DNA from: Alphaproteobacteria bacterium
GTDB lineage: Bacteria > Pseudomonadota > Alphaproteobacteria > Rs-D84
DNA: 64,000 bases
Direction of reading: 5' to 3'
Assembly: GCA_017642585.1 (NCBI GenBank)
Contig: JAGCOR010000017.1
Coordinates: 17,937-81,936, forward strand
Part shown: one piece after another, positions 53,489 to 57,137 of the stretch
How positions within the stretch are numbered: position 1 is the stretch's first letter
Layout: each line of letters starts with the position of its first letter
The notes under the pieces: generated by a model
Database searches by the model: none
What the model was told of the DNA's origin: nothing
Seen by the model: only the letters and a program-made list of their open reading frames with translations
Position numbers and translations under genes: made by a program

Positions 53489-54442
53489 ATGATAAAAAAA
53501 CTGTTCGCTGGGATGTTGTGTTTGATAACATCTGTATCTTTTGCAGAAGAAGATATGACAATACAGGGGGCGGAAGAATTATTTGAAGCAACCAAAATTG
53601 TATGTATGGGAATATCCGATGAAATATCCCACGTTTCAAAAATATCCAAGGTGAACACAGCGGTTACTGCGGCAGGAACGGTCGCTGCTGGTGGCGCATT
53701 ATATGCTGGTATTAAAAAATCCCAGGAAGAAAAAGAAATAGATGCTCTTGTGGACAGAATGTGCAGAGCAGGTGGATGTGATTCGGAAACCGTTAAAAAT
53801 ATGAGCTTGGAAGATTTTTATAATAACGTGATTTCCCCGATGGCGCAAATTGCAGAATTACAGAAAAAATTAGAAAAATCTAAAAAGTTAGGTAATTGGA
53901 GAACAGGTTTAATGGCGGGAACAATTGGAACCAATTTGGCATCTGCGATTATATCTGGGGTAAACGCAAATCAATCTGAATTGATTCAACATATAGAGGC
54001 ATGCAATGACATGGTGAAATCTGTGGAAACTGCATCTATGCAATTAAAAGCGGCGGGATTCAATCCGGCGGAAAATCCAGTTATCAAAAAATTAGATAAT
54101 GTCAAAACATGGTGTTCCCAGATAAATACAAATGATGTAGAAAAAATTGAAAAACGTATGAAAGGCGTTATGGGTACGTCCATTGCAGGTACTGTGGTTG
54201 GTGTTGTTGGAACTGCAACCAGTGCGGCTGCGAATTCTGATAAATATATGGATGCGCAAAACAGAATTGGTTTGACTGATGAAGAAAGACAAAAAGCAAA
54301 AAATTTGAATACCACAGCTAATATCATGGCGGGGGCGAACGTTGCCACAGGATTGGTTGAAACTGGGCTGAATATATCTTTGATTACATTGACCAAAAAT
54401 TTAATGTCCCAAGCAGGTCGTTGTGAAGAGGTGTTACAATGA
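53489..54442 (+). CDS. Exported protein with four Gly/Ala/Thr-rich hydrophobic segments (glycine-zipper-like); paralogue of the central module of the giant protein
   Basis: Signal peptide MIKKLFAGMLCLITSVSFA. Hydrophobic segments: TAVTAAGTVAAGGALYAGI, GLMAGTIGTNLASAIISGV, GTSIAGTVVGVVGTATSAAA and IMAGANVATGLVETGL. AAGGGAG RBS 13 nt after the nlpD stop. Confidence 0.8.
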   Translation: MIKKLFAGMLCLITSVSFAEEDMTIQGAEELFEATKIVCMGISDEISHVSKISKVNTAVTAAGTVAAGGALYAGIKKSQEEKEIDALVDRMCRAGGCDSETVKNMSLEDFYNNVISPMAQIAELQKKLEKSKKLGNWRTGLMAGTIGTNLASAIISGVNANQSELIQHIEACNDMVKSVETASMQLKAAGFNPAENPVIKKLDNVKTWCSQINTNDVEKIEKRMKGVMGTSIAGTVVGVVGTATSAAANSDKYMDAQNRIGLTDEERQKAKNLNTTANIMAGANVATGLVETGLNISLITLTKNLMSQAGRCEEVLQ

Positions 54443-55161
54443 TAAAAAAATTGTTATTATTTTTATTGGTCTTATTAAGTGGTGGATATATTCAATCATC
54501 TGCCTTTGCGGATGAGGTCCCCAGAGATATATTCAAAGATGCTGAAAATATGCACAATGATTATTTGGCACAAAGAATTGATTTGGCTGCGGCCCAGGCC
54601 ATATGTCAATCTATGTTCGCCTATGCACGTGCACGTAATATAAGAATTGTATTGGATGGGTTAGATGGTAATCAATATGTGCCGTATGTACAATGGTGTG
54701 AAGACAGTGATTTTAGAATAGTTGAATTTTTAACACTACAGGTTGCAGATTTTTTAAAATCTTGGTCTAATGAATCGTATTTTGCAAAAATGGTTTCTGA
54801 TGCAAAAAGGAGCTGTAAACGTTCTGCGCAGATAGAACATTTAATATCGCAACAATATGTTGTTAACAATAATGAAGTTACTGTGAAATGTTCTCATTCT
54901 GATAATCGTTGTATGATTTCTATGCCTGTAACAAAATCAGGAACAACGCAACATTATACTGCATGTTGTTTAATGCCTGATTATTCGCGTATGCAACAAA
55001 CAACAGAACAAATTACTGATGAAAATGGAAATACAGGTACCAGAACTTATTACACTGGGATAGCGGGATATGTTGATATACAGTGGAATGGGGTTACATC
55101 ACAAATACCAAATATAACAGATTTTGATTTGAAGTGTAAACCAATACAAAATGTCGAATGA
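54439..55161 (+). CDS. Exported Cys-containing hypothetical protein
   Basis: Signal peptide MIKKLLLFLLVLLSGGYIQSSAFA. No recognisable family. ATGA overlaps at both ends (54439..54442 and 55158..55161). Confidence 0.75.
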   Translation: MIKKLLLFLLVLLSGGYIQSSAFADEVPRDIFKDAENMHNDYLAQRIDLAAAQAICQSMFAYARARNIRIVLDGLDGNQYVPYVQWCEDSDFRIVEFLTLQVADFLKSWSNESYFAKMVSDAKRSCKRSAQIEHLISQQYVVNNNEVTVKCSHSDNRCMISMPVTKSGTTQHYTACCLMPDYSRMQQTTEQITDENGNTGTRTYYTGIAGYVDIQWNGVTSQIPNITDFDLKCKPIQNVE

Positions 55162-56057
55162 GAAGATTTTGTGCATTTTTATCGATTTTATTATGTCTGC
55201 CAATGCTGTGCATGGCGGATATGGTCGGATACAGCGGGGATATTCGTCGATATGTTACCCAAGCAGAGAAAGCGCAATTTCCATATAATTCTGTTGTTAA
55301 AATTATCGATAATGGCAGTACAGGCACAGGAACTTTTGTTTCTCCAGATGTAATATTAACATGTCGACATGTTGTAGATACCAGTGAAGAAAAATTTATA
55401 GAATACTATACATCTGATGGACAAAAACATAGAGGGTTTGTTGCACCTTATCTGCATGACGAAGCCAGTGAACATGATTTTGCATGGGTTATTGATGAAA
55501 ATGCATACAAAGGGGCTGTGTATGATGTGTCTGCAGTTACTAAACGTTCGCAAAATTTAATGGCCATAGGATATGATTCTTTGAAACCTTTGTCTAATGA
55601 AGAATTACAAATAGTAAAACGGTTGTACAGTGATTGGCTTCAGAAAAACGGCAAAATCGAAGGGGCAGACAAAATATGGCAGGCAATGGTTGATGTCGAT
55701 TTGCAATTAAGATTTTATTATGCGTGTTCTGGCGACAGGCAAACCGACTGTGTCCATTGTTCAGATACAGACCAATCGTGTATATTTGCAGATAATAATA
55801 ATATGAAAGTCAGACAGGGGTGTCGTGTTACGCATGTTGATTCCCAGATATACACAAATTGTCCTGGGGCATCTGGTGCTTCTGGCGCTGCTTTGATAGA
55901 TTTGGAAACCAATCAAATTATTGGTATTGCATGTGAGGTTGGCAAAGTACAAATTGGGCAAGAAAAAGATGCAATTATGTTGGGCACGCGACCAGAATAT
56001 TATCATGAAGTTTTGACTCACTGGATAGATGGGATAAAAGCAAACAAAAATAAATAA
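55158..56057 (+). CDS. Exported trypsin-like (S1/Trypsin_2-type) serine protease
   Basis: Signal peptide MRRFCAFLSILLCLPMLCMA. Candidate triad: His in VILTCRHVV, Asp in EHDFAWVI, Ser in NCPGASGASGAALIDLETNQIIGI. Confidence 0.7.
   Translation: MRRFCAFLSILLCLPMLCMADMVGYSGDIRRYVTQAEKAQFPYNSVVKIIDNGSTGTGTFVSPDVILTCRHVVDTSEEKFIEYYTSDGQKHRGFVAPYLHDEASEHDFAWVIDENAYKGAVYDVSAVTKRSQNLMAIGYDSLKPLSNEELQIVKRLYSDWLQKNGKIEGADKIWQAMVDVDLQLRFYYACSGDRQTDCVHCSDTDQSCIFADNNNMKVRQGCRVTHVDSQIYTNCPGASGASGAALIDLETNQIIGIACEVGKVQIGQEKDAIMLGTRPEYYHEVLTHWIDGIKANKNK
55176..55220 (+). repeat. 45-bp signal-peptide-coding repeat, copy 1
   Basis: TTTTTATCGATTTTATTATGTCTGCCAATGCTGTGCATGGCGGAT. Matches copy 2 at 43 of 45 positions. 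Confidence 0.9.
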
Positions 56058-56060
56058 TAA

Positions 56061-57137
56061 ATGAAAAAAATATATTTATTTTTATCGATTTTATTATGTC
56101 TGCCGATGCTGTGCAGGGCGGATGGGCGGCCTGATATCAGACGTGATTATCAGACATTGATGACCAAACAATTGTGGGAAATTCAAGATTATTTGCTTGA
56201 AGTATTAAGAGTTGCGGAACGTGGGTATCAAATTTACCCAGAATGTAATAATATTTCGCGTTATTATACCCCAAAAGACAGGCAGAGATTAACAGATTAT
56301 CTTAACAGCGGAAAACAAGAAGAAGATGTAACAGGTGGATATTGGGCTGATACTGGTGATGTGATTTTATCCCACGAAACAATACACAAATTATTAAGTC
56401 AATATAATAATTGTATTCACAGATATATTTGGGTCAGTGATACTGATTTGGCTTCTATGGGTTTTGGTGCATTTGGACAAAGTAGCTATATGGCGGGGAC
56501 AATATATAATCAGTGGCCTGGGCGTGCGCGTAATTTAATGAGCAAGGAATATAGTGATGGCAATGTCAGACATACTGTTAAATGGTGGGATGAAGATGTA
56601 ATGGACGGACCAGAATGCACAGGGCCCGAAATATTAAAAACCGATTCCAAACACGAAAGGAAAAGAAAAGCACGGGAAATCCGGGAACATACCTGTTTAT
56701 ATCCACGTGGATTTCAAGAATATAAAATTCATTGGGAATGGGGACCCGATGAAGAGGTGATGACAGTGTTCTATGATGATCCATCCCGCAATATTCACCA
56801 GGTTAGCAGATACAGTATGTTAAAAAACGCAGATACTGGTTTTTATAAATTTGACCATTGGACAGCTGTTTATAATTATAATGAATATTATGCATGGTTG
56901 AATCAAAAGCAACAGGATATAAAAGATGGTATGTACCCTGTAACCATAGATCCTGCTATGCTGTGCGATTCAGATGCCCAATGTTTAGAGATGATAAAAC
57001 AGGATAATCCAGATGCGACAGATTTAGATAAATATCGGTCTATGCAACGTTTCCCCAGAAAGATACAGTTTTACAAGGTTCAACCATTTATAGATTCTGG
57101 CGATAATGCACAGCAGGGGGATAAAAAAGAGAATTAG
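56061..57137 (+). CDS. Exported Cys/Trp/Tyr-rich hypothetical protein
   Basis: The signal peptide MKKIYLFLSILLCLPMLCRA is nearly identical to that of the preceding gene. 358 aa with no recognisable family. Confidence 0.75.
   Translation: MKKIYLFLSILLCLPMLCRADGRPDIRRDYQTLMTKQLWEIQDYLLEVLRVAERGYQIYPECNNISRYYTPKDRQRLTDYLNSGKQEEDVTGGYWADTGDVILSHETIHKLLSQYNNCIHRYIWVSDTDLASMGFGAFGQSSYMAGTIYNQWPGRARNLMSKEYSDGNVRHTVKWWDEDVMDGPECTGPEILKTDSKHERKRKAREIREHTCLYPRGFQEYKIHWEWGPDEEVMTVFYDDPSRNIHQVSRYSMLKNADTGFYKFDHWTAVYNYNEYYAWLNQKQQDIKDGMYPVTIDPAMLCDSDAQCLEMIKQDNPDATDLDKYRSMQRFPRKIQFYKVQPFIDSGDNAQQGDKKEN
56079..56123 (+). repeat. 45-bp signal-peptide-coding repeat, copy 2
   Basis: TTTTTATCGATTTTATTATGTCTGCCGATGCTGTGCAGGGCGGAT. 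Both copies encode FLSILLCLPMLC(M/R)AD. Confidence 0.9.

Follow-up and report, generated by a model that had tools for sequence, protein, structure and literature searches.

We analyzed a 64,000-nucleotide (nt) stretch of a genome from the Rs-D84 lineage of Alphaproteobacteria (contig JAGCOR010000017.1); the whole stretch is called the window below, and coordinates are counted from its first letter. The analysis concerns four consecutive genes of this window, referred to as A, B, C and D, each of which begins with a predicted Sec-type signal peptide. Comparison with related loci indicates that A is the constant head of the cluster and that the exported proteins encoded behind it form a variable cargo; this description of the locus is highly probable. 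The reading that we favour, with a probability of about 0.5, goes one step further: the locus would combine a constant exported partner, A, with a variable array of secreted effectors devoted to interaction with a host or a partner cell.

The gene layout was established from the list of open reading frames (ORFs), and it agrees with what a sequence-only reading of the window had described. The four ORFs lie on the plus strand (coordinates in Table 1), and A starts 13 nt 3' of a gene for a LysM-LysM-M23 lipoprotein, called NlpD-like hereafter. A and B share the four nucleotides ATGA, as do B and C, and 3 nt lie between C and D. All four N-termini are of the Sec type as predicted from sequence, with a K/R n-region, a hydrophobic core and small residues at -3/-1; the predicted signal peptidase I sites end with SFA (A), AFA (B), CMA (C) and CRA (D). 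About 70 downstream homologues and partners begin with a similar signal peptide, and Cys is enriched 2- to 3.7-fold in all of A to D. A is preceded by its own Shine-Dalgarno sequence, AAGGGAG. From the NlpD-like gene through the end of D no terminator-like site was found, the single strong one being located 3' of a downstream tRNA-Lys gene (57274-57292). Antisense ORFs across the A-D region are short, and Rfam gives nothing besides the tRNA-Lys. Proteins identical to A-D are recorded at NCBI from a metagenome-assembled genome (MAG) labelled "Alphaproteobacteria bacterium" (MBO7053170-173), and the same gene order is found on several metagenome contigs.

The genes which follow A were then compared across genomes. 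The comparison covers 88 fetched genome stretches (the loci designated by L numbers), in which ORFs were called with a simple caller and labelled by means of profiles for A, B, C, D and NlpD. Counts refer to 90 A-family genes from 83 non-redundant loci; these loci are phylogenetically non-independent and are mostly MAGs. A same-strand gene is present directly 3' of A in 79 of the 90 cases, and the spacings are overwhelmingly -4 or -1 after correction of the caller: spacings of -22 and -19 are an artefact of an upstream ATG, and the MKK... start about six codons later restores the ATGA overlap. The next gene falls into the following classes: a C-like protease (40 cases), an exported protein of at least 800 amino acids (aa), or giant (10), a B-like protein (9), a D-like protein (4), and other proteins which mostly bear a signal peptide (16). 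Nine A genes are followed by a gene on the opposite strand and two by the end of the contig. The arrangements observed include A-C, A-C-C, A-B-C, A-D-C-D, A-C-D-C, A-C-D-C-x-C, A'-x-x-A-C, A-giant and A alone. The sequence-only reading had proposed an exported module outside described systems, to be verified by its conservation across genomes. The proposal stands insofar as A is paired with a trypsin-like protease in dozens of genomes and A, B and D have no match in Pfam, NCBIfam, PADLOC, PHROGs or PDB; it does not stand for a fixed four-gene unit, since the A-B-C-D order is found only within a single species (L001-L004).

The subfamily to which an A gene belongs correlates with the class of its cargo. 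The A orthogroup of the window (n=42) is followed by B, C or D; A cluster 9 by long-form proteases (12 of 14 genes), A cluster 1 by giants (10 of 18) and A cluster 2 by a class of 444-506 aa (4 of 4). At the syntenic site the order is RecJ-NrnA-LolA-TatA-TatC-NlpD-A-[variable]-tRNA-Lys-TatD-ThiF-OMP, where OMP is an outer membrane protein. The identity of A between species at this site is 59-67%, a value like those of NrnA and NlpD and slightly below those of RecJ, LolA and TatC, while the genes behind A change between genomes.

Two close relatives allow the turnover of the cargo to be followed at the nucleotide level. In L009, a MAG from horse faeces, A is 97% identical and the DNA flanks are 92-93% identical, and a segment of the window is missing (Table 1): C is lost entirely, B for the most part and D over its first 327 nt, and the open remnant of D is 101 codons long. 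In L089, which is about 90% identical, the arrangement is A-B'-D. Its alignment to the window covers A, extends 77 nt into B as far as 54515, and is taken up again where D starts, at 56059; positions 54516-56058 of the window are replaced by the unrelated body of B' (P0189, 26% protein identity), and no protease is present. The same pattern is visible at the protein level in the B alleles P0189 and P0190, which keep the signal peptide of B with a mature part only about 25% identical. The breakpoints in L009 and L089 place the boundaries of exchange in or at signal-peptide coding sequences. In the window itself a 45-nt direct repeat codes for the signal-peptide cores of C and D; its copies are identical at 44 of 46 nt, their flanks are dissimilar, and the pattern occurs twice in the window and never in shuffled sequences. 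The starts of A and B resemble each other, and so do the starts of B, C and D. Both between species and between close strains, cargo is thus replaced or deleted, with boundaries at signal-peptide coding sequence. Even on a modest reading this is an unusual form of diversification, in which whole mature bodies are swapped behind a conserved signal-peptide coding sequence.

A defines a new family of Sec-exported, disulfide-type helical proteins, which is clade-restricted and multi-copy. More than 1280 homologues were found, and among the matches listed the top 120 all have at least 63% identity; an exhaustive search gave 302 A-family clusters at 50% identity. In a scan of 185,579 species genomes (one genome per species) 213 loci were obtained, and the family was found only in MAGs of gut, rumen or faecal Alphaproteobacteria, many of them Candidatus Enterousia. 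Several MAGs carry two, three or more A genes, even within the fetched fragments. No match to A was found in Pfam, NCBIfam, PADLOC or PHROGs, none in PDB sequences with the family profile, and none by tblastn in plasmid and phage collections. An alignment of 78 sequences, also used for AlphaFold2, shows ten invariant residues: C39, G74, G135, R138, T139, C172, C209, S245, N278 and C312, four of which are Cys.

The AlphaFold2 model of A is all-helical (predicted local distance difference test, pLDDT, 75; predicted template modelling score, pTM, 0.50), with confidence lowest in the Gly-rich stretches. Long helices are predicted at 42-93, 107-158, 162-188, 214-248 and 264-316, arranged in helical hairpins. 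The four Gly/Ala/Thr-rich segments pointed out by the sequence-only reading are indeed present, and they are also rich in Ser and Asn. On a crude Hessa-scale sum they reach 4-6 kcal/mol in all family members, which is comparable to the signal peptide of A and to the weakest TatC helices. Their hydrophobicity is thus only marginal, so that the term "membrane-active", applied to A in that reading, stays putative. We also considered A as an integral inner-membrane protein with four transmembrane helices and its invariant Cys in the periplasm; this is unlikely, because the scores of the segments resemble that of a signal peptide and differ from those of strong transmembrane helices.

In longer members of the A family (about 460-640 aa) a coiled coil rich in K and E is inserted between the first and the second Gly-rich segment. 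In P0289, P0302, P0310, P0327 and P0331 (498-639 aa) the insertion measures about 180-320 aa, the longest being about 250-320 aa. These long proteins had been candidates for domain fusions; they are coiled-coil insertions, and sub-threshold Patatin matches, which stood alone, were ignored. The differing length of the insertions suggests that the family consists of a conserved head, made of two small-residue helical hairpins, and a stalk whose length varies. The two halves of A (residues 31-75 and 201-246) align weakly with hhalign (probability 70%, E 4e-5), and the aligned unit, helix-Cys-helix-Gly-rich segment, hints at an ancient internal duplication. Two A paralogues are found in one same-strand cluster beside GyrA-MerR in L007 (5706-9937), L020 and L022. 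The order there is A' (34% identity), an exported protein of 294 aa, an ORF of 111 aa which was not called in L020, A (64%) and a protease, so that units of head and cargo stand here in tandem arrays.

Distant A paralogues (33-38% identity) precede the giants, in L072, L074, L075, L079, L081, L082, L084, L085, L087 and L088. The giant genes are ATGA-coupled, 3' of the A match at ~8001-8950, and encode proteins of 880-1600 aa with a signal peptide, a conserved Cys-rich N-terminal part ("FxFDD" repeats) and a hydrophobic hairpin in the centre. Their C-termini diverge, and those of L084 and L074 contain an HExxH motif. No Pfam domain was found in the giants, and they look polymorphic-toxin-like. 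The window also encodes a giant exported protein (39219-43046, plus strand, 1275 aa), and a gene for a SPOR-domain protein (38165-38932) is located upstream of it. In this giant of the window Pfam recognises a CarboxypepD_reg-like domain (8e-12); Cys-rich units of about 30 aa are repeated in tandem (CTALGEIVRWDATTSQCVCVDETK-like), the centre has hydrophobic stretches rich in Gly and Ala, and the C-terminus is rich in Cys. A had been considered paralogous to the centre of this protein. This kinship is not supported: BLASTP gives E=0.48, and a hidden Markov model (HMM) of the A family (92 sequences, filters off) does not recover the protein at E<=10. It is not detectably related either to A or to the giants 3' of distant A genes.

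C was recognized by the sequence-only reading as a trypsin-like serine protease, and this assignment holds. It matches Pfam Trypsin_2 with 47.8 bits for a cutoff of 27.6 (E 3.2e-12), and the proposed triad consists of His71 (TCRHV), Asp107 (DFAWVI) and Ser242, the second Ser of GASGASGAAL; of the 53 family members aligned, 52 retain it. The nearest solved relative is the Bacillus intermedius glutamyl endopeptidase (1p3c, E 4.2e-5), over the N-terminal half only; C carries in addition a Cys-rich insertion and has 11 Cys in total. It aligns to the mature glutamyl endopeptidase almost from the predicted cleavage site, and so seems to have no long pro-peptide, if any. Judged on these features C looks catalytically competent and adds a member to a known protease family. 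In PADLOC, C has only weak matches to protease domains, and PHROGs gives nothing meaningful for the locus; as A is also absent from plasmid and phage records, we discarded an anti-phage defence, phage or plasmid module. A small protein (100-190 aa), N-terminally membrane-anchored and coiled-coil, is encoded 3' of the C-like protease in nine loci (L011:2015, L019:9897, L032:1734, L034:9883, L035:11593, L037:5508, L044:2233, L056:8996 and L080:9754); the window has no such gene. The protein might serve as an inhibitor or an anchor, or be a fifth component of the module.

B and D have few relatives in the databases, four and six respectively, and profile searches gave no Pfam or PDB match for either. 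B has four invariant Cys (56, 87, 151 and 176). D is rich in Trp (2.8% vs 1.0%), Tyr (7.3% vs 3.4%) and Cys (2.2% vs 1.0%), in agreement with the sequence-only reading, and its conserved motifs are HTCLYPxGFxEY and QQDIKDG; D-like genes occur in L026, L027, L035 and L043. An AlphaFold2 model of D from 7 sequences was unusable (pLDDT 38) and was discarded. B and D are fast-evolving orphans and, according to these profile searches, outside any described family. A role of B or D as the dedicated inhibitor of C was rejected as a general rule, since B- or D-like genes occur without C in L047, L052, L057, L066, L089 and L027.

Under the reading favoured here, A to D would be co-transcribed, perhaps from a TGATATAAT promoter in front of the NlpD-like gene, co-translated, exported by Sec and disulfide-bonded. 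A would be the constant subunit which holds, anchors or delivers the co-translated cargo at or through a membrane. It might do so at the outer membrane of the producing cell, as a dedicated secretion partner with the logic of MafA/MafB, or in the membrane of a target cell, as a translocator or pore-former acting via its two Gly/Ala-rich hairpins with the logic of binary toxins and alpha-pore-forming toxins. C would degrade or process proteins of the host, the partner cell or the environment, and B and D would be rapidly diversifying effectors or adaptors. The whole module would serve the partner-dependent lifestyle proposed for these bacteria. The function of A as a delivery or anchor subunit for the cargo is tentative. 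A broader version is unlikely: the A family would be an undescribed export or delivery system, in which A, stapled by disulfides, oligomerises via its Gly/Ala hairpins into a membrane conduit or anchor, the Sec-exported cargo (proteases, orphan effectors and giants) passes through the outer membrane of the producing cell or into a partner or host cell, each paralogue has its own cargo class, and cargo diversifies at signal-peptide "handles".

Several observations weigh against this reading. Some A genes have no coupled partner, being followed by the opposite-strand gene counted above (9 of 90) or by a large gap. The same A orthologue is paired with differing cargo sets, and a protease gene is located 5' of A in L016, L028 and L034. 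No mature N-terminal domain that might serve as a recognition tag is common to B, C and D. No immunity-like gene is present in the window, where D is followed by the tRNA-Lys gene. Foldseek on the A model returns nothing significant (PDB best E 0.019 with template modelling (TM) scores of at most 0.31; BFVD TM at most 0.44). The non-significant PDB list consists mainly of long helical bundles of a generic kind; many pore formers of the ClyA family appear in it, as does UmbC, and we take these ClyA-family entries as a lead, not as evidence. Marginally hydrophobic Gly-rich helices with conserved Asn, Thr and Ser may equally pack in a soluble bundle. The presence of A-D on one transcript, possibly with the upstream NlpD-like gene, is an operon structure that we infer from the sequence. 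The gene maps, finally, depend on the simple ORF caller and on profiles derived from the fetched loci themselves.

Other explanations of the same observations have to be weighed. The bundle-like model of A, its marginally hydrophobic helices and the apparent lack of a pro-peptide in C would also suit a periplasmic holdase or inhibitor, which keeps dangerous cargo inactive or folding-competent and away from the membrane; translational coupling suggests stoichiometric co-production, and the A subfamilies follow the class of cargo. Such a protein would have to deal, however, with very different cargo (proteases, B, D and giants) having no common domain. A also occurs alone, its slow evolution beside a cargo that turns over is unlike the pattern of a specific inhibitor, and the coiled-coil stalk of variable length is left unexplained; we consider this explanation improbable. 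Equally improbable is that A is an envelope housekeeping protein linked to NlpD, Tat and LolA, with independent downstream genes gathered in a permissive spot. A is conserved about as well as its housekeeping neighbours, the context from RecJ to NlpD is conserved at one site, and A persists after loss of the cargo in L009. But NlpD adjacency concerns 7 of 42 genes of the same subfamily and none elsewhere, A is multi-copy at unrelated sites, and the -4/-1 overlaps recur at unrelated sites and across subfamilies, so that chance accumulation is hard to credit.

A could also be the effector itself, a secreted pore-former of the ClyA/Hbl/Mak type matured by C, with B and D as accessory subunits; this would be the toxin-maturation module that the sequence-only reading had suggested. 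The Sec signal, the size of about 300 aa and the all-alpha model with long hairpins, two of them Gly/Ala-rich, are in keeping with this idea; AhlB, MakA, SmhB, ClyA, PaxB and MakE are frequent among the best, non-significant Foldseek matches, two A paralogues are present per operon in L007, L020 and L022, and A stands alone at some loci. The matches reach only E 0.02 or worse and TM at most 0.31, however, and Pfam, whose models include HlyE and Bacillus_HBL, gives no match at E<=1. The hydrophobicity of the segments is marginal, and the giant cargo coupled to distant A genes is left unexplained; we hold this explanation to be quite improbable. There remains the view that no functional module exists and that four unrelated lineage-specific exported proteins are adjacent by chance. 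The confinement of A-B-C-D to one species and the near absence of relatives of B and D speak for it. It is largely refuted by recurrence, with overlapping A-protease pairs in about 40 loci from many species and several contexts, and by the correlation between A subfamily and cargo; the 5' ends of the genes moreover share sequence, and we judge chance adjacency extremely improbable.

The coordinates of the features discussed are collected in Table 1.

Table 1. Features of the A-D locus and its immediate surroundings (window coordinates)
Feature	Position	Strand	Description
TGATATAAT extended -10-like motif	52101..52109	+	Exact match; possible promoter of the NlpD-like gene and A-D
NlpD/DipM-like lipoprotein gene	52117..53475	+	Two LysM and M23; Pfam Peptidase_M23 9.5e-32, LysM 2.4e-31; LSGC lipobox
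Gene A	53489..54442	+	317 aa; conserved head gene; Sec-type N-terminus (ORF list)
Gene B	54439..55161	+	240 aa; variable exported orphan, cassette-type cargo (ORF list)
Segment missing in L009	54478..56387	+	blastn: 45493-54477 at 93%, 56388-61999 at 92%; 218 unrelated nt instead
Gene C	55158..56057	+	299 aa; predicted exported trypsin-fold serine endopeptidase with Cys-rich insertion (ORF list, Pfam)
45-nt direct repeat, copy 1	55176..55220	+	Codes for the signal-peptide core of C (FLSILLCLPMLC)
Gene D	56061..57137	+	358 aa; variable exported orphan (ORF list)
45-nt direct repeat, copy 2	56079..56123	+	Codes for the signal-peptide core of D
tRNA-Lys(CTT) gene	57192..57267	+	ARAGORN, Rfam; conserved right-hand neighbour of the variable region

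The NlpD-like protein upstream of A matches the NCBIfam models ActS, DipM and NlpD, every one under its cutoff. Its N-terminal linker contains a 27-nt tandem duplication (DDYVLYA / DDYVLVP, 52344-52393), and GTTGCCAAGGGCGAT is repeated at 52543 and 52792, the starts of its two LysM domains. The TGATATAAT motif was reported as recurrent by the sequence-only reading, and the count bears this out: 8 copies in the window for 2.1 expected from shuffles, the other copies being at 8055, 12080, 15585, 17529, 33524, 38121 and 47072. The copy in front of the NlpD-like gene is a possible, putative promoter for this gene and A-D. It ends 7 nt before the ATG at 52117, so that the mRNA would have no leader or a very short one, unless translation begins at the ATG at 52123 after AGGGGA. 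NlpD is directly upstream of A in 7 of 42 genes of the A subfamily of the window, all at one syntenic site, and in no gene of the other subfamilies. The attachment of A to this gene appears positional, not functional, and its confinement to one site argues against the envelope remodelling by a cell-wall hydrolase module which had been put forward for the cluster.

On the other side the tRNA-Lys gene is situated 54 nt beyond D, as had been noticed. It has its own promoter-like site (57143-57170) besides the terminator-like site mentioned above, and it is kept in the relatives L009, L018, L026, L034, L035 and L036. Its interpretation as a landmark of accessory DNA did not survive: the window contains no att-like second copy of the tRNA-Lys 3' end (with up to 3 mismatches), no integrase is found among the annotated neighbours of A-D, and the same tRNA is next to the locus in relatives. 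A tRNA-integrated island was discarded on these grounds, and the link of the tRNA to A-D appears positional, not functional. Further downstream, a gene at 59536-61101 (plus strand) encodes an exported protein of 521 aa with a sub-threshold match to an Autotransporter beta-domain; its identity in relatives is 21-38%, vs 64-76% for ThiF and OMP. Possibly it is a further surface protein on which diversifying pressure acts.

The host lineage gives these results their interest. Rs-D84 bacteria, or Candidatus Enterousia, have genomes mostly below 1 Mb, without biosynthetic pathways and standard transporters, and have been proposed to depend on partners (PMC12306168, PMC13196213); for lack of these functions they are thought to live off other cells. 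They are widespread in animal guts. An exported family such as A, multi-copy in a tiny genome and coupled to changing proteases and toxin-like giants, is a strong candidate for the machinery of interaction with partners. If A were a delivery or secretion subunit, it would represent a new kind of dedicated export route, with a logic like that of MafA/MafB or two-partner secretion, and it would offer a handle on the biology of an uncultured lineage of symbionts or parasites.

The locus was finally compared with known systems. Glutamyl endopeptidases and the V8 and Spl proteases are S1B-type secreted serine endopeptidases, and C resembles this type by its Trypsin_2 fold, its His/Asp/Ser triad, its signal peptide and the apparent absence of a long pro-peptide. 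It differs by a low similarity (E 4e-5, N-terminal half), by the Cys-rich insertion and by its occurrence in expanded variable arrays coupled to A genes, in a Gram-negative host with a genome below 1 Mb. Pore formers of the ClyA family (ClyA, Hbl/Nhe, AhlABC, SmhABC, MakABE, XaxAB/YaxAB) are, like A, proteins of about 300-370 aa, all-alpha, with long hairpins and a hydrophobic head; some are Sec-exported, often with several paralogues per operon, and they are the most frequent named class among the top Foldseek matches of A. These matches are however non-significant (E 0.02-0.4, TM 0.1-0.3; for AhlB, MakA, SmhB, ClyA and PaxB E 0.06-0.4 and TM 0.11-0.31, part of the A model being of low confidence), and A has no Pfam match of the HlyE/Bacillus_HBL type and no PDB sequence match. 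A is further set apart by its four Gly/Ala/Thr segments of marginal hydrophobicity and by its four invariant Cys, which are not known as a feature of the ClyA family, and it is coupled to proteases or giants, not to paralogues only.

With contact-dependent inhibition (CDI), Rhs, Maf and umbrella toxins the locus shares a constant component combined with variable payloads, presence or absence at the strain level, several loci per genome and recombination at conserved sequence boundaries. The recombination handle is different, being here the signal-peptide coding region of separate genes and not the N-terminal domain of one toxin. The payloads of the window are also different: a protease and orphans, with no recognised toxin domains, and neither immunity genes nor orphan C-terminal cassettes. 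For umbrella toxins, the Foldseek match of A to UmbC is non-significant.

The Maf systems of Neisseria deserve a closer comparison. There, secretion of the Sec-exported polymorphic toxin MafB depends on MafA, a non-barrel 34-kDa protein whose gene lies upstream (PMC7738311). A (317 aa) is likewise encoded directly upstream of polymorphic exported proteins which bear a Sec signal. Both systems have several paralogous pairs of partner and cargo per genome and a cargo that varies like cassettes. The cognate specificity of the Maf pairs has its counterpart in the A subfamilies, which follow the class of cargo, and giants with variable C-termini are encoded behind distant A genes. The differences are as follows: A has a signal of the signal peptidase I type (SFA) and no lipobox, whereas MafA is a lipoprotein; A has no similarity to MafA or another named family in Pfam and NCBIfam; A is predicted all-alpha and MafA is mixed alpha/beta; B, C and D have no shared N-terminal domain and no DUF1020 match, whereas MafB has DUF1020; and the window contains no immunity genes. 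Taken as an analogy, the locus resembles in its logic the Maf systems, two-partner secretion and binary toxins.

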